Positions 5,170-17,124 are shown, numbered from the stretch's first letter. The stretch: DNA of 64,000 nucleotides from Escherichia phage ECML-183-2 (OL631481.1), one strand, 5' to 3'. Translations and numbers: made by a program. The notes: generated from the letters alone by a model not told the origin.

Positions 5170-5670
5170 ATGGGTGTAGCAACAATAGCTATCGGAAGAA
5201 GCGGTATAGATGAGTGCTATCAAACGGGACTCGTAAAACCTAACGAATTTCGTCAAATTTGTGTAAACCATATTGAAAAAGAGATTGCTCTTACTTTAGA
5301 GAATATGACCCTCCGAGATAAACTGGAAATGTTTAAATGTTGGTGTCTAGGAGAAGATTGGCTTTTAAACCATTTTCAAGAACTTTCTGATAGTAAAGAA
5401 AGCTTGTTTGATTGTATAATAGGAATAGCTGGCTCCGATCCTAGCCTTCTGCACATAACAGAAGAAGAGGCGAAGTTACTGTTCTTAAGTAATTTGTTTA
5501 ATAAGAAAGCACTGCTTGTTCGTGATTGCAGTGATCTTCTTAATAACCCGCTCGCAACGTCTGATCAAATTTTTGTTGACAAAGAGACACTACGTGCGAT
5601 AGAATACATCTGCAAATATGTGAATGGCGGGAAAGCGGTTCTTAAAACATTAACAGAGGAGGAAGAATAG
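5170..5670 (+). CDS. hypothetical protein (166 aa)
   Basis: ORF track (start at ATG after TTG); AAGGAGG RBS. Confidence 0.5.
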   Translation: MGVATIAIGRSGIDECYQTGLVKPNEFRQICVNHIEKEIALTLENMTLRDKLEMFKCWCLGEDWLLNHFQELSDSKESLFDCIIGIAGSDPSLLHITEEEAKLLFLSNLFNKKALLVRDCSDLLNNPLATSDQIFVDKETLRAIEYICKYVNGGKAVLKTLTEEEE

Positions 5671-6362
5671 TGACGACAATTATTGCAACCAAAAATAAGA
5701 TTTTGAGTGACGGTAAGGTAACTTTTGGTGGACGTGTAGATTCTATTAATTTCAAAAAGGTCCGAAAAATTGGAGATTACCTTGTAGGTGGTGCTGGTCG
5801 TCTGACCTCCGTGCTTTCTTTCTTTCAATGGTTTGAACAAAATCTACAGTGCGAAGCAGCACGTGATGCTGTCCCTGGTTTGATGATTCACTCTGATCCA
5901 GATAAAGAAGATGAAGAGTTTATTGCACTTGTTGTTCATCCAGACGGACGTATTTTCCTGCACGAAGGTAACAACCCAACACGTGCATATCCGATTGATG
6001 AAGAATATTATGCAGTAGGAAGTGGGTCAGACTTTGCTTTAGCTGCTCTTGATGCAGGGGCAACACCAGAACAGGCTATGGAAGTAGCTAAAAAGCGAGA
6101 TGCTTTTTCTGGTGGTGAAACATTTATTGAAGAACAAGACGAGATTATTGAATTAACAGATGATGATTTAGAAAACTTCTCCAAAGAAGAATTGATCAAT
6201 CTTTTGAAATTCGGTAATCCCTACGGTGAAGAAGAACCTCGTAACGTGGCAGGTAACGAGGCGGATACTGAAGAAAAATCTGTTGCAGAAAACAACTTGA
6301 CTTCTAAATCTGAAAATATTAATCTCGTAAATGTGGCGGATTTCGAAGGAACCGCTATTTAA
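5670..6362 (+). CDS. HslV/proteasome-beta-like Ntn peptidase with acidic C-terminal extension
   Basis: GTG start then TTI (N-terminal Thr after fMet), GGAGRLTS and GSGSDFALAA motifs resembling HslV. Confidence 0.55.
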   Translation: MTTIIATKNKILSDGKVTFGGRVDSINFKKVRKIGDYLVGGAGRLTSVLSFFQWFEQNLQCEAARDAVPGLMIHSDPDKEDEEFIALVVHPDGRIFLHEGNNPTRAYPIDEEYYAVGSGSDFALAALDAGATPEQAMEVAKKRDAFSGGETFIEEQDEIIELTDDDLENFSKEELINLLKFGNPYGEEEPRNVAGNEADTEEKSVAENNLTSKSENINLVNVADFEGTAI

Positions 6363-8624: not shown

Positions 8625-8954
8625 ATGGAAATTACTACAGAACAAGCCCTTATCGACGAGGGTCGTAAAATCTTAGAAAAGTATTTAGGGGAGATTCATA
8701 AAACCCCTGGCTATTTGGGTTGGAGAATTGTTGAAGCTGTAGATTTCCTTCCTCGTAACAGTAAAAACGTCGAAATGCGATCTCTTTTCTTATTAGTAAA
8801 GGTGGATGGGGATACGCCTTTTAAAGATGCCGCAGAACATATTGAAAAAGTTGAAGAGAAAGCTTATGCAGAATTTGCCGATCTTGTTTTAGAACAAGAG
8901 ATTGAAGGAAAGGTGAATATTTTTATTTTCTTAGATTTTGAGGAGGATAAGTGA
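8625..8954 (+). CDS. hypothetical protein (109 aa)
   Basis: ORF track; RBS GGAGGAAGG. Confidence 0.5.
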   Translation: MEITTEQALIDEGRKILEKYLGEIHKTPGYLGWRIVEAVDFLPRNSKNVEMRSLFLLVKVDGDTPFKDAAEHIEKVEEKAYAEFADLVLEQEIEGKVNIFIFLDFEEDK

Positions 8955-9694
8955 TCATACACAGAGAAATTACTGTTAAAAGCGATCAAGATCTTTTTAT
9001 AATTGGAGATCTACACGGTTGTTATAATTTGTATGAAAAAGGAAAGGCAAAGTTAGGTATCCGAGATACAGATGTGGTTGTATCTCTAGGAGATCTTACT
9101 GACCGTGGAAAGCAAAACTTTCGTTGTGTTTTAGAATTTACTCGTAAACACAATCGCTACGCTATTCGTGGCAATCATGAAGACATGATGATTAAAGGTA
9201 TGCTGGAAGGAGATCGTAGCTACTACGAGTGTTGGTATCAAAATGGAGGATATACGGTCTTTGAAGAATGTGGTGAAGAAGGAGCTACAGCCTTAGCAAT
9301 GATGACAGAAGATTTACCTGTTGTTCTCATTGTTAACTACAGAGGCATGAAACTTGCGTTTATTCATGGTGGGTATCCATCTTCTTTGGAATATCTCCCT
9401 GTAACAGATATTCCAGAATACATTTCGAAGATGACAAAAACACAGGAAAACCGTTTTGCTGAAGCACTTATGTGGGACAGAGATATGGTAGACTGTGCTA
9501 AAGAGGGAATGAAACTTCCTGTTGTGATGGGTGTGGATTATGTGTTTCATGGACACTCTTATGTAAAAACACCTATTATCAATGCGAATCGTGTTTATAT
9601 GGATACTGGATCTGTGTTCAATAATAACTTAACATTTGCTTATTTCGATATGGACGGTGGTCTTCAATTTTATTCAACTCTTGAGGAGGATTAA
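8951..9694 (+). CDS. Ser/Thr protein phosphatase (lambda-PPase-like metallophosphoesterase)
   Basis: GDLHGC, GDLTDRG, GNHE metal-binding motifs; GTG start with GAGGAGG RBS. Confidence 0.8.
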   Translation: MIIHREITVKSDQDLFIIGDLHGCYNLYEKGKAKLGIRDTDVVVSLGDLTDRGKQNFRCVLEFTRKHNRYAIRGNHEDMMIKGMLEGDRSYYECWYQNGGYTVFEECGEEGATALAMMTEDLPVVLIVNYRGMKLAFIHGGYPSSLEYLPVTDIPEYISKMTKTQENRFAEALMWDRDMVDCAKEGMKLPVVMGVDYVFHGHSYVKTPIINANRVYMDTGSVFNNNLTFAYFDMDGGLQFYSTLEED

Positions 9695-10009: not shown

Positions 10010-10591
10010 ATGGCAGAACTGTTCTATACGGGAGTTGGAAGTAGAGACATATCTGAAGAAGAGTGGGCTTTGATGGTAGGCATAGGGAAATGGCTTTCAA
10101 ACCTTGGGTTTAAATTAAGGTCTGGGAAGGCAGAGGGTAGTGATTCTGCTTTTGAAACAGGTGTCCAAGAGTCTGAAAATCCTACTAACAAGGAGATTTA
10201 TGTTCCTTGGGAAAATTTCAAAGGTAATCAGATTCCAGGTGATGTTATTGTTCTTGCAAAACCAGATACAATGAACTATGCTATCTCTGTGCAATGGATC
10301 AAAGATGTTCACCCAGCTTATGAAAAGCTTAAGCAGGGTGCTAGAAAATTGCACCAACGTAATGTGCATCAAGTGTTAGGCAGAGATTTGGAGAATCCTG
10401 CTCCATCATGTTTCTTGTTGGCTTGTGCTAATACTGATAAACATGGAGATGCAAAAGGTGGAACAGCTACGGCTTGGAAGATAGCTAAAGCCAATAATGT
10501 TCCTTGTTTAAACATTCGTGGGAAAACAAAACAAGAGATTTACGATTTTCTACGACCTTTGGTAATGAGGGCAATAACAAGTGATTCCTAG
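10010..10591 (+). CDS. DprA/Smf-like Rossmann-fold (SLOG-type) protein
   Basis: GVGSRD ... LRSGKAEGSDSAFETG resembles DprA core; start moved to ATG after GAGG. Confidence 0.4.
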   Translation: MAELFYTGVGSRDISEEEWALMVGIGKWLSNLGFKLRSGKAEGSDSAFETGVQESENPTNKEIYVPWENFKGNQIPGDVIVLAKPDTMNYAISVQWIKDVHPAYEKLKQGARKLHQRNVHQVLGRDLENPAPSCFLLACANTDKHGDAKGGTATAWKIAKANNVPCLNIRGKTKQEIYDFLRPLVMRAITSDS

Positions 10592-11093
10592 ACGTAAACG
10601 TGGTGAACAAAGAACAAACTTGGCAGAAATCTTAGATTACAACATGGTTAATGATGTGACAAAAGAAATTCTCCCTGTTGTAGAAGATATTCTTCGTAGA
10701 GGGTTACGATTCTGCTCTGATCGGGTGCATTTCATGTGGACACATAAAAGTGACTCCGCTTTGAATTTCTATCCTTTGGACTATACTCTGAACAATACGG
10801 AGATGAAAGATATCAACAAATACTTAATGGGATATAAAGATATAACAGAAACTGTTCTTGGAGAATTGGCAGAAATCTTGGCTAACGATATCCTTAGAAA
10901 TATTAATAAGGCTCTTGACAGAAGCCCAGCAGGAGTAGTAGTATCTTTTGCTGTGCCAGATATGGTTAAATATGAGTCTACAATACCTAATAAAGCTTAT
11001 GCCTTTCTTCGGAGAGACGTTCGTGGAAATGTGTTGGAGATGGAGTCAAACTACAAGATTGAGGAGGTTTTATGGCAGAGTTCGGATCAGTAA
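10581..11093 (+). CDS. hypothetical protein (170 aa)
   Basis: ORF track; GTG start. Confidence 0.45.
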   Translation: MIPRRKRGEQRTNLAEILDYNMVNDVTKEILPVVEDILRRGLRFCSDRVHFMWTHKSDSALNFYPLDYTLNNTEMKDINKYLMGYKDITETVLGELAEILANDILRNINKALDRSPAGVVVSFAVPDMVKYESTIPNKAYAFLRRDVRGNVLEMESNYKIEEVLWQSSDQ

Positions 11094-11362
11094 CAAGTTT
11101 TGAAAGTAACTTCGTTACCGCTTGGGAAGCTTGGGATGAAATGGGTGTTGGGGAACTTTATTTTTACAATGTAACACTACGTCCAGAGTATGCTTACCTG
11201 GTACCAGAAGGAACAGTTCAAATTGGCATGTATTTGTCTTCTCAAGACGGTGTTGTTCAATTTGAGTTTTATTCTAACACAACGGACAACGAATTTACAT
11301 ACCGCGCATTTCATGTCAACATGTCTTTAGGAGAGGAGAAATTTTATGACGACCAAGTTTAA
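11072..11362 (+). CDS. hypothetical protein (96 aa)
   Basis: ORF track; RBS GAGGAGG. Confidence 0.45.
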   Translation: MAEFGSVTSFESNFVTAWEAWDEMGVGELYFYNVTLRPEYAYLVPEGTVQIGMYLSSQDGVVQFEFYSNTTDNEFTYRAFHVNMSLGEEKFYDDQV

Positions 11363-11543
11363 AACAGTAGAAGAAGCCGTAAAAGCAGCTTATGAGGCTT
11401 TAGCGGAAGCAGAGCAGTTAGCAGATGAGACTGGTAAAGGTTTCCGTTTCTCCCCTGAATATGGGATGGGTGGTTATTATGATCCAGAAGACGAAAATGA
11501 GAACACTGGAACAAATTGGCATCCATCTTCTTTAAGTTGTTAA
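11346..11543 (+). CDS. small acidic protein with C-terminal W-H-P-S-S-L-S-C tail (paralog 1 of 3)
   Basis: 65 aa; helical N-terminus; ends NWHPSSLSC. Confidence 0.5.
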   Translation: MTTKFKTVEEAVKAAYEALAEAEQLADETGKGFRFSPEYGMGGYYDPEDENENTGTNWHPSSLSC

Positions 11544-11554
11544 TAGGAGGTAAA

Positions 11555-11824
11555 GTGGGAATCGAAGATATCAAAGGTTATAAACCGCATACCGATGACA
11601 AAATTGGTAAAGTGAATGCTATTAAAGATGCTGAAGTTCGATTAGGATTAATCTTTGATGCTCTAATGTCTGAATTGTGGGCTGAACTGGACGATTGTGA
11701 AGATTTGGAAGAGTCTACCAATATATCCACCCGCCTTGACCAAATTTCAATAGCAAAGACTAAGTTGAAAGAAGCTTCTATGTGGGCCTGTCGTTCCGTT
11801 TTCCAACCAGAGGAGAAATACTAA
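11555..11824 (+). CDS. hypothetical protein (about 89 aa, GTG start)
   Basis: Track ORF trimmed to GTG preceded by TAGGAGGT RBS. Confidence 0.4.
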   Translation: MGIEDIKGYKPHTDDKIGKVNAIKDAEVRLGLIFDALMSELWAELDDCEDLEESTNISTRLDQISIAKTKLKEASMWACRSVFQPEEKY

Positions 11825-12042
11825 TGAGTTATCGTAATGTTGAAGAATTAACTGAAAAAGCCCAAGCTATTATGGCTTTAGTGGACGAACTTACAAAAGA
11901 AGCTGAAGATGCTGGTTTTGGTCTTAGTTTGGAAGATGACGCAATCTGTTTTGAAGATTGGCAATCCTCTTCTTGTTATGGTGAAGGTGATGATGGTTTC
12001 GTCGTTAATTCTCAAGGCGTTTGGCACAGTAGTAGCTGTTAA
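11824..12042 (+). CDS. small acidic protein with C-terminal W-H-S-S-S-C tail (paralog 2 of 3)
   Basis: 72 aa; ATG overlaps upstream TAA; internal WQSSSC and terminal GVWHSSSC. Confidence 0.5.
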   Translation: MSYRNVEELTEKAQAIMALVDELTKEAEDAGFGLSLEDDAICFEDWQSSSCYGEGDDGFVVNSQGVWHSSSC

Positions 12043-12051
12043 GGAGAGATT

Positions 12052-12324
12052 GTGGAGTCTGAAGGCGAACTGCTGATAAAAAAGAAAGTTAAAGAGATGG
12101 AACAAGCACAAAGAAAGTTTCGTAAGGAAATTGAAGAACTTTGTGAACAGTTTCAGGAACAAGCTTGGATAGGTGACTACGGTAACGGAGAAACTTATTA
12201 CCCTACAGGAACACCAGCCGCAGATCACTATATTGATTTCATTTGTGAAGATTATGGTGTAGAGTTGGATGAAAATGGTTTAACCACAAGAGGTGTTTGG
12301 ATCTCTTCTTCCTCAATGTGTTAG
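12052..12324 (+). CDS. small acidic protein with C-terminal W-I-S-S-S-S-M-C tail (paralog 3 of 3)
   Basis: 90 aa; GTG start after AAGGAGAG; ends GVWISSSSMC. Confidence 0.5.
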   Translation: MESEGELLIKKKVKEMEQAQRKFRKEIEELCEQFQEQAWIGDYGNGETYYPTGTPAADHYIDFICEDYGVELDENGLTTRGVWISSSSMC

Positions 12325-12333
12325 TAAATAATA

Positions 12334-12355
12334 ACCCGCTTCGGCGGGTTTTTTA
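12334..12355 (+). terminator. rho-independent terminator
   Basis: ACCCGC-TTCG-GCGGGT hairpin followed by TTTTTT. Confidence 0.75.
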
Positions 12356-12384
12356 TTGACAGGAATCTGGAAGCTTGATAAACT
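12356..12384 (+). promoter_or_regulatory. sigma70-type promoter
   Basis: TTGACA - 17 bp - TAAACT directly after the terminator, 30 bp upstream of next gene. Confidence 0.5.
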
Positions 12385-12414
12385 TAACCTATCAACCAAT
12401 AGAGGAGAAATATT

Positions 12415-13356
12415 ATGGTGTTAATTGGTAGCCGTGCATTACAAATTCATGCTATGGACATGGGAAAAGACTTGTATCGCCCTTGTGTAGATTTAGATTA
12501 CCTGTGTACAGAACAAGAGTGGGAAGAATTATCAAAAATGTTCTCTCAAGATGAGTTTGTTGAACTTGTAGAACGTAAAGGGAACAAGGGCCATGTCAAA
12601 ATGATAGCTGGTGCACATTTGGAATACGATATTGCTTCTCAAGGAGATAGCACAGAAGCTTTGATTAGTTATTGTGAAGATTCTGATGATGTTCGTCGAA
12701 CTTACGCTGGACACGTTGTTGCTCCTTTAGATGTGCTCTACCTTCTTAAAATGAGTCATCGTTTTAAAAAGGATAGTCCTCACTTCTTTAAAACTATGAA
12801 AGATATTCATTTCATGCGATCACTAGGCGCAAAGATCCCAGAAAATCTTAAGAGTGTTTACGAGTTGCGTGAGAAAGAAACATACACTTACTCTCATCCA
12901 AACTTAAACGTGAGAAGTAAAGATTTCTTTAAAGGTGATGAGGTTCCGTATGTTTATGATCATGATTCTATCCATGAAGCAATCGCGGTAATGGATGCTC
13001 CGGCATATAAATCTTATATGAAAGATGGAAGTGAAGTTATGACCAGCAAAGAAAAGTTTTTTGCTCAACCAAAACATGTGCGCCTGTTAGGTGTTTATGA
13101 AGAAGCGTGTGTTTTGGCTTTGGAACGTTCACAAATTCCTTTCGGTGGAGAGATCGGAGGTCCAACCCCTAAGCAAAGTTTTATAATGGCTTTATCTAAA
13201 GTCTGCACATCCATCACTAGTGGTTGGTTTAGGGAATATGCTTGGGAAAACTTTTATGTTGTTATTAAGCTATATGAAAACATGGGCGAAAACGACTATG
13301 TTGAACGTTTTAAAGCTAATCAACATGTAGTAAAGCCTTTTGAAGGAGGTTATTAA
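12415..13356 (+). CDS. hypothetical protein (313 aa), possible nucleotidyltransferase-like N-terminus
   Basis: N-terminal GS ... DLD segment loosely resembles pol-beta-type NTase motif but spacing atypical. Confidence 0.5.
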   Translation: MVLIGSRALQIHAMDMGKDLYRPCVDLDYLCTEQEWEELSKMFSQDEFVELVERKGNKGHVKMIAGAHLEYDIASQGDSTEALISYCEDSDDVRRTYAGHVVAPLDVLYLLKMSHRFKKDSPHFFKTMKDIHFMRSLGAKIPENLKSVYELREKETYTYSHPNLNVRSKDFFKGDEVPYVYDHDSIHEAIAVMDAPAYKSYMKDGSEVMTSKEKFFAQPKHVRLLGVYEEACVLALERSQIPFGGEIGGPTPKQSFIMALSKVCTSITSGWFREYAWENFYVVIKLYENMGENDYVERFKANQHVVKPFEGGY

Positions 13357-13357
13357 T

Positions 13358-13753
13358 ATGTGTGGATATCTTTCAGAAAGTTATTTCAAAGTGACGCATG
13401 AGGATTTAGAAAAAGCACGATTGAAACTGACAGCTATTATTGAATACTCTAATACTGTTGATCACAGATTAAAGACTACTAAAGTATCTGTTCCTTGTTG
13501 GTTAGGTTTACGGCATAAAATAATGTCTCAACATGACCATGTTGTTCGAGAGATGCATGGTTGGTGTTGGTTTCACGATGTGGCTCTGCATTTTGGTTAT
13601 ATTACAGAAGAAGAGCATAGATTCTGTGAACTAACATATCGTATTCCAACCCTTCACGATTTAGATTTGTGGAAGAAAGCAAACGAGATTTTTCTTACAG
13701 AAAGTGATTGGCGTAAAGTTATGGCTTGTCTTGAATGGAGGGGTAATGAGTAA
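13358..13753 (+). CDS. hypothetical protein (131 aa)
   Basis: Track ORF trimmed to ATG with GGAGG RBS. Confidence 0.45.
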   Translation: MCGYLSESYFKVTHEDLEKARLKLTAIIEYSNTVDHRLKTTKVSVPCWLGLRHKIMSQHDHVVREMHGWCWFHDVALHFGYITEEEHRFCELTYRIPTLHDLDLWKKANEIFLTESDWRKVMACLEWRGNE

Positions 13754-14429: not shown

Positions 14430-15046
14430 TGTCAAATTCAAAACCAGTAGTTGCTTATCAAGTAGATCGTAATGATGGTGAAGGTAGTGTTGTAGTTTTT
14501 GATACACATGGTCTTGCAGCAAGACGCAAAGGTGCTTGTCTACTGGACATTGGTGGTGAAGATGAATACTGCACTGTACGTAGAGTAAAAGAATTTGATC
14601 AATATGCTGAAAAAGGTTTTGTACCCGTGAAAGCACTATTAGAAGCTGGATGGTGGATACCTAGTGCACATGATTATGATATTTTGGAAGATACAGATGA
14701 ATTCAACAGTGAAGATTTTGTTTTTTCTCTGGATGAAAAATGCGTTTGGAAGGACTGGGATGAAATGGAACGCCATGCTTATTTTATAAACGAAGCATTA
14801 GATCGTAAAACTTGGTTTGAGAATACAGTTAAAGCAGCGTATCCTCAATTTACTTTTACACAGTTTTGGGGTGGCCCACATCATATTACTCATACAGCAT
14901 ATTTCGAGTTCCCAGGCTCACGTTATAAAGGTACTGTTTATTGGGATTGGGACGAGGACAAAGAACCTTCTGCTCAAGACTTCCGTTGCTATGTTTGTCA
15001 AGGTGATCAAGAAGCCCTTGACAAATACCTACAAAGTCTGGTATAG
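14429..15046 (+). CDS. hypothetical protein (205 aa)
   Basis: ORF track; RBS AAGGAG. Confidence 0.5.
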   Translation: MSNSKPVVAYQVDRNDGEGSVVVFDTHGLAARRKGACLLDIGGEDEYCTVRRVKEFDQYAEKGFVPVKALLEAGWWIPSAHDYDILEDTDEFNSEDFVFSLDEKCVWKDWDEMERHAYFINEALDRKTWFENTVKAAYPQFTFTQFWGGPHHITHTAYFEFPGSRYKGTVYWDWDEDKEPSAQDFRCYVCQGDQEALDKYLQSLV

Positions 15047-15063
15047 TGCCAACATCTGAACAA

Positions 15064-15092
15064 AGCCTCCTGTTTCAGGGGGCTTTTCTTTT
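15064..15092 (+). terminator. probable rho-independent terminator
   Basis: AGCCTCC-loop-GGGGGCT imperfect hairpin followed by TTTCTTTT. Confidence 0.5.
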
Positions 15093-15104
15093 ATAGGAGG
15101 GAAT

Positions 15105-15584
15105 ATGTTTCAAGTAAATGTCAATGTGCATAATAGTTACTCTGATTGTGAAACGTGTGGCTATAATTCATCTAATGTTGTTCGTATTAGTGGCGATTTA
15201 GGAGAAGCTTCTTTTGGAGAAGAAGCAAGTTGCTTTAGTGGTATGGATGCAGAATGGAATGATATTGCACATTGGTTGGTGAGCAAACTAAAAGAAAAAG
15301 AGAAACCATTTCCTACTCTGCTTGATCGTTCTCTTGTGGAAGACGCAGGTAAAGCATATGCAGACTATGCGTATGCAGACGGTAAATATTTGGAAGATGA
15401 TAAGGCTAACCATTTGCTTTATGTTTACTATGAAGCTGAATCTGCCTACGATAATTATTACAGCATGTCTAACATCCTACGTCTGTTTGCAGAGTTTGAT
15501 ATTTATTTCGAAGTAGAATTTTCAGAAGATGATGTTTATGAATATGATTCTTATGATCCATTTGAGGAGGAAGAGGGTGAATGA
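15105..15584 (+). CDS. hypothetical acidic protein (159 aa)
   Basis: ORF track; RBS AGGAGGG; highly acidic C-terminus. Confidence 0.5.
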   Translation: MFQVNVNVHNSYSDCETCGYNSSNVVRISGDLGEASFGEEASCFSGMDAEWNDIAHWLVSKLKEKEKPFPTLLDRSLVEDAGKAYADYAYADGKYLEDDKANHLLYVYYEAESAYDNYYSMSNILRLFAEFDIYFEVEFSEDDVYEYDSYDPFEEEEGE

Positions 15585-16308: not shown

Positions 16309-17124
16309 ATGCCGCGTAGAGTCATATTCATAACTGGCGCAGGACTATCTGTGGATAGCGGTATCCCAGCTTTTAGAACAGATACTTCTTCAGGGGAGGC
16401 GTTATGGTCTTCTTATAATCTTTCTGAAGTCTGTGACATTTTCAACTTCCGTGACGGTTATCAGCAAGAACAAGGTATTCTGGATGCTATGGGCGGTTTA
16501 GATGCGGAAGGATATAACCTCTACCGTAAAACTCACGACTTTTACAATAAACGTCGCGCGGAATTAGAGAAAGTTGACCCGAATCCGGCACATCTTCAGA
16601 TTGGGGAATGGTTCAAAAAACATGGTGCAGAAAAGATTATTAACATCACTACTAACGTTGATGACCTCCTTGAACGAGCAGGAGTAGATAGGGAAGAAGT
16701 GCTACATGTGCATGGTTTTCTTCCTGAAATTACTTTTCAAAGAAAAGCTGGACAACCTACAATTGTAAAAGATGTTGGTTATCAAGCCATAGATGTAGAT
16801 GACTACCATTATGTAAAACCTAATGTAATCTTCTTTGGGGAAGCTGCTCCACTTTACACAGATATGTATCATATTTTTGATACACTGACGGCTCAAGATA
16901 TGGTTATCGTTGTAGGCTGCTCTAACCAAGTAATCAACTTCAACTGGGAACTCTTCCCTGCCCTGAATATTGGGGTTAAGATGGTTGTAGTTAACCCAGG
17001 TTTGAATTTTGTAGAACAAACTCTCTACGAAGAACGTGGAGTGCTTGTCTACCGAGAGAAAGCAGGAACAGTCTTCAGTGATGAAGGCTTTATCAAAATG
17101 GTTGAAGACCATTTAAACAAATAA
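16309..17124 (+). CDS. Sir2-family (sirtuin-like) NAD+-dependent protein, no zinc-ribbon
   Basis: GAGLSVDSGIPAFR, TTNVDDLLERAG, HG, VIFFGE, VVGCS motifs; the CxxC..CxxC Zn module is absent. Confidence 0.8.
   Translation: MPRRVIFITGAGLSVDSGIPAFRTDTSSGEALWSSYNLSEVCDIFNFRDGYQQEQGILDAMGGLDAEGYNLYRKTHDFYNKRRAELEKVDPNPAHLQIGEWFKKHGAEKIINITTNVDDLLERAGVDREEVLHVHGFLPEITFQRKAGQPTIVKDVGYQAIDVDDYHYVKPNVIFFGEAAPLYTDMYHIFDTLTAQDMVIVVGCSNQVINFNWELFPALNIGVKMVVVNPGLNFVEQTLYEERGVLVYREKAGTVFSDEGFIKMVEDHLNK

Follow-up and report, generated by a model that had tools for sequence, protein, structure and literature searches.

Here we have characterized a family of small proteins encoded within a 64,000-nucleotide stretch of the genome of Escherichia phage ECML-183-2 (OL631481.1), the whole of which is referred to as the window. 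Three genes in this window encode proteins of 65, 72 and 90 amino acids (aa; tail proteins A, B and C) that end in a shared Trp-, Ser- and Cys-containing tail. We show that these proteins belong to a phage family with a strongly conserved tail and that, in nearly every locus sampled, its genes co-occur with a gene for a predicted Pol-beta-fold nucleotidyltransferase (NTase). It is probable that the tail family is functionally coupled to this enzyme, whatever the mechanism. As a tentative explanation of this coupling we favour a model in which a Ser of the tail is modified by the NTase.

An original prediction, made from the sequence of the window alone, had described three small tandem genes with conserved C-termini. 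The three open reading frames (ORFs), their C-terminal sequences and an additional internal WQSSSC in protein B were all confirmed by ORF analysis and translation. The tandem arrangement holds for B and C, which adjoin, and fails for A, which is separated from B by an intervening gene (11555-11824). The ATG of tail gene B overlaps the stop of this preceding gene, and a Shine-Dalgarno sequence (GGAG/GAGG) lies 6-9 nucleotides 5' of all three tail genes. For the 90-aa gene, the assigned GTG start is backed by homologues whose ATG falls at this same position. The proteins are acidic (pI 4.0-4.4, net charge -8 to -13), and homologues of protein A with 71-97% identity retain the tail. A six-frame scan of the whole window found the terminal motif only in ORFs A, B and C, against a chance expectation of 0.02 motif-ending ORFs (>=50 aa) per window and a maximum of 1 in 300 first-order Markov shuffles.

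Pairwise BLAST matches among the three proteins were weak, ranging from an E value of 0.013 to no match. Despite this, all three matched the hidden Markov model (HMM) of phrog_899, a PHROG family of unknown function, over profile positions ~148 to 218-221 of 221, and we therefore regard them as true paralogues. All three end in W-x-[S/A/P]-S-S-x(0-2)-C. Protein B represents a double-motif subfamily with a Trp-to-Cys spacing of 5; this 72-aa type forms a distinct group, present in 11 of 32 loci and in Phapecoctavirus as well as Tevenvirinae, which indicates an old paralogue type that phages have kept. Protein A carries a YGMGGYY motif and protein C a DYGNGETYYP motif. Searches of A, B and C with Pfam, NCBIfam and PADLOC models produced only sub-threshold chance matches (TPR, Snapin, prefoldin and ZorB), and a match to a class IV lanthipeptide model at an E value of 0.05 was rejected on the same grounds. 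A 170-aa protein encoded just upstream, which ends in LWQSSDQ, was considered as a decayed member of the family and rejected; its homologues do not retain this ending and the resemblance is thus attributed to chance.

To examine the extent of the family, 1.84 billion representative proteins were searched exhaustively with an HMM (E <= 1e-3), which returned 205 clusters at 50% identity. Motif statistics rest on the 150 listed representatives of these clusters, which share no more than 50% identity with each other. A terminal Cys was present in 143 of these representatives and the full W-x-[S/A/P]-S-S-x-x-C ending in 140. A detailed consensus was computed for the 142 members that have a Trp shortly ahead of their terminal Cys and reads [G]-x-W-x-[S 94 / A 28 / P 20]-S-S-x-x-C-COOH. 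The Trp lies exactly seven residues before the terminal Cys in 140 of these 142 members. Counted from the Trp, Ser occupies W+3 in every member and W+4 in 140; counted from the terminal Cys, Ser is found at -4 in 140 and at -3 in 141. The motif originally given as Trp-x-Ser-Ser-Ser-x-Cys is therefore conserved but needed redefinition, as the family form is W-x-[S/A/P]-S-S-x-x-C with the Trp at -7, and the shorter spacing is a feature of the 72-aa type. A search for the motif in homologues had been proposed with the original prediction; its presence in ~95% of representatives, together with the low chance expectation, establishes the tail as a conserved element.

Outside the tail, family members are variable in sequence but share several features. 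The median length is 87 aa and the median net charge is -8. Most members have a mid-protein YG-x-G-x-x-YY motif, and D, E, S, Y and W are often abundant in the segment preceding the tail. The terminal Cys is the only Cys in 85 of the 142 members; the other 57 contain a further Cys, frequently as part of a recurring W-x-x-S-S-C-Y-G-E motif. A second W-x-S-S motif is present inside the protein in 27 of the 142. No Pfam domains were found in the longer members (130-213 aa), so that no domain fusions were seen. The 90-aa type was detected by tblastn in 415 phage records, and members of the family occur in the much-studied phages RB69, JS98 and Aeromonas phage 31, the copies being annotated as hypothetical. 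A literature search with DUF7275, DUF7277, PF23940, PF23942, phrog_899 and descriptive terms found nothing relevant.

Some loci contain variants of the tail. A metagenomic contig (L083, 125-1353) has four tandem members followed directly by the enzyme gene, and three of these four end in W-x-P-S-G-L-x-C, which keeps the Ser at -4 and loses the Ser at -3. Decayed-looking members were observed in three further loci (L080 4114-4287, L081 3883-4068 and L084 2259-2492), having either W-S-S-S without a terminal Cys (WSSSYE or WSSSNE) or a sequence running past an internal W-D-S-S-M-Q-C. In phage ESCO10 (L001, OM386655.1, 3591-6067), ORFs of 60-120 aa are named Hoc, helicase, UvsY, baseplate wedge and inhibitor of prohead protease. 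These names look wrong, and the last of them, attached to a homologue of the tail proteins, was rejected as an implausible record annotation.

The original prediction had stated that no modifying enzyme was obvious nearby. This view has to be abandoned, as the gene for the predicted NTase starts 90 bp 3' of tail gene C. Pfam matches of this protein are to DUF7277 and DUF7275, plus a weak match to CLCA at E values up to 1. At least 2,209 homologues exist, all of them unnamed, and tblastn located the enzyme in 734 phage records. Among 37 homologues with 51-81% identity, G5-S6, D26-x-D28, E70 and K112 are invariant and R116 is nearly so. The G5-S6, D26-x-D28 and E70 pattern is, at the level of sequence, a Pol-beta nucleotidyltransferase signature. 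The solved structures nearest to the predicted NTase are the MenT1, TglT and MenT4 toxins. When compared with MenAT/AbiE toxins, the NTase had each of the Pol-beta elements, namely hG[GS], [DE]x[DE] and a third carboxylate, and had no match to the DUF1814/AbiEii sequence models of Pfam or to AbiE in PADLOC. From its invariant GS, DxD and E residues and its predicted NTase fold, the enzyme looks catalytically competent.

Linkage between the tail genes and the enzyme was assessed from both sides in sampled loci. Starting from the enzyme, at least one tail ORF was present in all 23 viral contigs retrieved (enzyme identity 43-77%), two of which derive from ~355 kb jumbo phages, and a tail ORF lay directly upstream on the same strand in 20 of the 23. 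The five GenBank phages that have an enzyme homologue of >=40% identity all carry tail genes: five genes upstream in the Pseudomonas Otagovirus PPSC2, two in each of the Acinetobacter Twarogvirinae DLP2, Acj61 and AB1I1M-1, and two in the Stenotrophomonas Menderavirus Ps15, in this case downstream of the enzyme. A set of 185,579 species-level bacterial and archaeal genomes yielded only nine loci, all on contigs of metagenome-assembled genomes (MAGs), and a tail gene was upstream of the enzyme in eight of these. Starting from the tail family, with loci retrieved by an alignment of the 90-aa subfamily, the enzyme was found 0.1-2.1 kb downstream in 33 of 33 informative loci. Five divergent representatives chosen regardless of context (P0062, P0128, P0061, P0093 and P0104) all had the enzyme 0-1.3 kb further downstream. 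In two loci (L069 and L087) the enzyme gene begins before the tail gene has ended, its start codon overlapping the tail-gene stop. Negative controls were free of tail genes: the 16 kb of T4 that we examined (the vs-to-gene-5 region) contains neither tail genes nor enzyme, and four of four phages whose homologue matches only the DUF7275 portion (Gordonia, Streptomyces and Vibrio phages, the last being K406 and V07) have no tail genes.

The association covers at least five phage lineages, with examples in Straboviridae, Stephanstirmvirinae, Otagovirus and Menderavirus as well as in jumbo phages and unclassified metagenomic phages, and adjacency of tail and enzyme genes persists where gene order and the surrounding genes have changed. 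A confounder of this analysis is the relatedness of the E. coli T4-like loci to one another; independent support for linkage thus comes mainly from the other lineages and the metagenomic contigs. This association is two-way and has survived rearrangement, and is therefore strong evidence of functional coupling. Region 10500-13500 of the window has 98-99% identity to the ~150 kb genomes of E. coli myoviruses of the phAPEC8-like kind (Phapecoctavirus, Stephanstirmvirinae). In the records of these phages, all genes within the tail array are annotated as hypothetical. The layout of the region is given in Table 1.

Table 1. Features in and around the tail-protein array of the window (positions counted from the first nucleotide of the window)
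Feature	Position	Strand	Basis
HslV-family peptidase	~5670-6362	+	annotation of phAPEC8_ev052
Calcineurin-like Ser/Thr phosphatase	8951-9694	+	PF00149, E 3e-13
DprA/LOG-like (SLOG-type, GxGSR) gene	10010-10591	+	
170-aa protein ending LWQSSDQ	10581-11093	+	phrog_8569
Tail protein A, 65 aa, ends TNWHPSSLSC	11346-11543	+	ORF, translation; phrog_899, E 1.2e-12
Acb2 (T4 Vs.4-type) cyclic-nucleotide sponge homologue, 89 aa, GTG start	11555-11824	+	PF24729, E 1.2e-19
Tail protein B, 72 aa, ends GVWHSSSC	11824-12042	+	ORF, translation; phrog_899, E 7e-6
Internal WQSSSC of protein B	11959-11976		
Terminal WHSSSC of protein B	12022-12039		
Tail protein C, 90 aa, GTG start, ends GVWISSSSMC	12052-12324	+	ORF, translation; phrog_899, E 5.1e-14
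Terminal WISSSSMC of protein C	12298-12321		
Terminator-like hairpin + T-run	12333-12350 (hairpin)	+	consensus scan only
Sigma-70-like promoter, TTGACA, 17 nt, TAAACT	12356-12384	+	consensus scan only
Predicted NTase, 313 aa, DUF7277+DUF7275, helical C-terminal lobe	12415-13356	+	
SIR2-family gene	16309-17124	+	PF02146, E 3e-21

The 90-aa protein C is predicted by AlphaFold to be a folded mini-domain (predicted local distance difference test score, pLDDT, 93). The model comprises a helix at residues 4-34, strands at 38-40 and 47-50 around the YG-x-G motif, a strand at 82-85 that contains Trp83, and a turn at 86-89. Comparison of this model with the Protein Data Bank (PDB) found no counterpart chain, and PDB sequence searches with the tail-family and enzyme profiles gave no match, MenA1 included.

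We propose that each tail protein would be a small acidic mini-domain in which an N-terminal helix packs on a three-stranded sheet. The last strand would be held in place by the conserved Trp, with the end of the chain displayed as a Ser-Ser-x-x-Cys-COOH turn. The family would work with the adjoining NTase, and the invariant tail would be the element recognized by this enzyme, most plausibly as an acceptor peptide whose invariant Ser at -4 from the terminal Cys may be nucleotidylylated or phosphorylated. The one to five paralogues, through their variable bodies, could then provide different functions under the control of a single enzyme. Modification of protein hydroxyls is an established activity of Pol-beta NTases, as exemplified by GlnE, GlnD, DrrA and the MNT antitoxin. 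Physical interaction between the tail proteins and the NTase, covalent modification and any biological role are what we infer, and modification of the tail Ser by the NTase is offered as a tentative model. A fuller version of this proposal is somewhat more speculative again: in virulent phages of many lineages, a dedicated MenT-fold NTase may nucleotidylylate or phosphorylate a Ser in a shared C-terminal W-x-S-S-S-x-x-Cys tag, such that one enzyme switches on or off, or loads, several small acidic effectors of counter-defence or host takeover.

Several observations weigh against this proposal. In the window, a hairpin and a promoter-like site, both of them consensus matches only, lie between gene C and the NTase gene. 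The sole tail gene of loci L007-L009 is 6 kb from the enzyme and on the opposite strand, NTase locus L071 is without tail genes, and no tail genes accompany the 27%-identical enzyme homologue of DSS3_PM1. Part of the motif may be purely structural, because AlphaFold places the Trp and first Ser in a beta-strand. The need for a Cys as the very last residue is left unexplained by the acceptor model, as it is by all of the models considered here. Finally, the known MenT-fold enzymes act on tRNA 3' ends and not on proteins (PMC10435456).

The main alternative is that the tail proteins are antitoxin-like inhibitors. The NTase would then be a toxic or host-shutoff enzyme of the MenT/AbiEii type, probably acting on tRNA, whose electropositive active site is blocked by the acidic proteins with the tail as a pseudo-substrate plug. 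A precedent is the 68-aa helical MenA1, which is encoded just upstream of MenT1 and blocks it (PMC10435456), and the tail proteins are likewise small, very acidic, begin with a helix and are encoded upstream of the NTase. What speaks against inhibition is the presence of up to five diverged paralogues per enzyme gene, at least one type of which is kept across phage families; multiple maintained paralogues are unnecessary for simple neutralization and an inhibitor role is disfavoured for this reason. The tail proteins, moreover, have neither a sequence match to solved chains (MenA1 included) nor a fold match in the PDB, the enzyme has no DUF1814 or PADLOC AbiE match, and the module, unlike toxin-antitoxin systems, is nearly absent from bacterial genomes (the nine MAG loci). 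We consider inhibition rather unlikely and favour the acceptor model over it because several paralogue types occur per single enzyme gene, because at least the double-motif type is common to Phapecoctavirus and Tevenvirinae, because the motif is duplicated within some of the proteins (27/142), and because the tail is invariant while the bodies have diverged beyond recognition by BLAST. An equally doubtful explanation is that the tail proteins are independent small counter-defence or host-takeover proteins, such as ligand sponges or binders of a conserved host protein, with a structural or ligand- or metal-binding tail and the enzyme as a mere neighbour. This reading would accommodate the location of the genes in an accessory island with Acb2, DprA/LOG-like (SLOG) and SIR2-family genes, and with NAD-salvage genes in other phages, as well as the similar size (~90 aa) and acidity of Acb2-type sponges. 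A nucleotide pocket could be formed by the Trp and Ser hydroxyls, and the second Cys of 57 members, often in W-x-x-S-S-C-Y-G-E, would fit a metal or disulfide site. However, the terminal Cys is the sole Cys in the majority of members (85/142), no similarity to Acb2 or Tad1 was found, and adjacency to the enzyme holds where the island or gene order differs, which is hard to explain by inherited synteny alone.

Two further explanations follow from the original prediction, which likened the tail to a precursor peptide for post-translational modification or to a degradation or targeting tag. The general notion that the tail is recognized or modified, in this instance by a dedicated enzyme, fits our data; these two classical forms fit poorly. 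Precursors of ribosomally synthesized and post-translationally modified peptides (RiPPs) would undergo lanthionine- or aminovinyl-cysteine (AviCys)-like chemistry, in which a dehydrated Ser is joined to the C-terminal Cys prior to removal of the leader. In epidermin-type peptides, AviCys rings are formed with a Ser three residues ahead of the C-terminal Cys. The tail has this spacing and is rich in Ser and Cys, and one enzyme with several substrate genes is an arrangement found in some RiPP clusters. Nevertheless, no LanB/C/M/KC/L/D, YcaO, radical S-adenosylmethionine enzyme, peptidase or exporter was detected among the Pfam matches of the neighbours, of which five genes have one and none is RiPP-related, or among the genes annotated over 43 kb of a near-identical phage. 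Several neighbours have no Pfam match, such that an unrecognisable enzyme is possible. A conserved 'core' with a variable 'leader' is also the reverse of the RiPP pattern, the 90-aa protein is modelled as a folded domain with the Trp in a beta-strand, the natural W-x-P-S-G-L-x-C variant loses the Ser at -3, and these are cytoplasmic proteins of lytic phages without an export route. A RiPP-like role is the least credible of the explanations. Slightly less remote, and still very unlikely, is a C-terminal degradation or localization tag that the host recognizes, for example through a protease adaptor. Such a tag would be expected exactly at the C-terminus, where the motif is found, and the annotation of a related phage has an HslV-like peptidase gene ~5.7 kb upstream. 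Known bacterial C-terminal degrons are non-polar, with ssrA ending in LAA, and those of the ssrA type are recognized by ClpX or SspB; the tails, by contrast, end in polar Ser-x-x-Cys. Furthermore, the motif is kept in contigs linked to Proteobacteria, Bacteroidota, Cyanobacteria and Saccharibacteria, groups among which host adaptors differ, and its consistent partner, with which it travels, is a phage enzyme.

The closest known arrangement is MenAT1 of M. tuberculosis, in which a MenT-fold enzyme (MenT1) is encoded with a small upstream partner (the 68-aa MenA1). The present system differs in that the tail proteins have no sequence or fold likeness to MenA1, there are one to five paralogues per enzyme with an invariant W-x-S-S-S-x-x-C tail that MenA1 does not have, the enzyme has a DUF7275 lobe and no DUF1814 match, and the module resides in the genomes of lytic phages rather than in bacterial chromosomes. 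More broadly, no homology of the tail proteins to known antitoxins (MenA1, AbiEi/COG5340) was detected. MNT of HEPN-MNT, GlnE, GlnD and DrrA are alike in being NTase-fold enzymes genetically paired with a potential hydroxyl-acceptor protein; these modify Tyr or Thr of one defined partner, whereas the candidate here is a Ser pair in the terminal tag of several proteins, and the tail proteins do not have the HEPN Rx4-6H motif. A short invariant C-terminal motif on divergent proteins in combination with one enzyme family is also a feature of ThiS/MoaD-GG with E1-like adenylyltransferases, LPXTG/sortase and PEP-CTERM/exosortase systems. These differ in motif, fold and enzyme class, and neither a transmembrane segment nor an export signal is present in the tail proteins. 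Lanthipeptide/AviCys precursors resemble the tail proteins in small size, a Ser/Cys-rich C-terminus and several substrate genes, and differ in the points made above, namely RiPP enzymes, direction of conservation, predicted fold and machinery for leader processing and export. The Acb2, Tad1 and Tad2 sponges are similar in size, acidity and accessory-island location, but the tail proteins have no PF24729 match and the sponges have no obligate enzyme neighbour or terminal Cys motif. The tail proteins and NTase are best described as a nucleotidyltransferase with a small partner, and there is a real chance that they constitute a tag-and-enzyme modification system of a new kind.

The gene between A and B encodes a protein 78% identical to T4 Vs.4, a sponge active against CBASS (antiphage signalling that relies on cyclic oligonucleotides), and is unrelated to the tail family; the PF24729 hairpin matched this gene alone and none of tail proteins A, B and C. 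In T4-like phages, Acb2 is 5-8 kb from the tail array or missing from the sampled locus. Acb2 was considered as a functional partner of the tail proteins and rejected, the adjacency being specific to Phapecoctavirus.

Other neighbours recur between phages. The SLOG-type gene (also at L062 4200-4703, L080 3048-3644 and L007 ~14960-15505 on the minus strand) is 1-7 kb from the NTase in Phapecoctavirus, Aeromonas and Acinetobacter T4-likes and Stenotrophomonas phage Ps15, and it is this gene, not the enzyme, that the sole tail gene of L007-L009 adjoins. It may be a third component or a mere co-resident of the island. The SIR2-family gene lies 3 kb downstream of the NTase in the window, and a 34%-identical SIR2 (L067 8741-9445) lies 2 kb from the DUF7275-only homologue of Vibrio phage V07. 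Genes for nicotinamide adenine dinucleotide (NAD) salvage, either ribose-phosphate pyrophosphokinase with nicotinamide phosphoribosyltransferase (NAMPT) or NadR with NAMPT, are present 0.5-3 kb from the enzyme homologue in Acinetobacter, Vibrio and Stenotrophomonas phages (L080 6178-8887, L081 5827-8466, L066 2270-5223 and L062 99-2672). These salvage genes hint at a link to NAD- or nucleotide-based defence. The phosphatase gene is upstream in the same gene block, and the HslV-family peptidase is further upstream (Table 1).

The neighbouring genes suggest a role for the tail proteins in counter-defence or host takeover. Our analysis defines a two-gene unit down to exact residues, these being the Trp, Ser -4, Ser -3 and terminal Cys of the tail and G5, S6, D26, D28 and E70 of the enzyme. 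Anonymous phage genes, situated in islands with counter-defence genes such as Acb2, are thereby turned into a directly testable hypothesis. If the tail proteins were inhibitors, the unit would be a phage-borne toxin-antitoxin-like module with an unprecedented conserved peptide plug. If instead the enzyme modifies the tag, this would represent a new post-translational modification in phages and a new use of the MenT/AbiEii fold.

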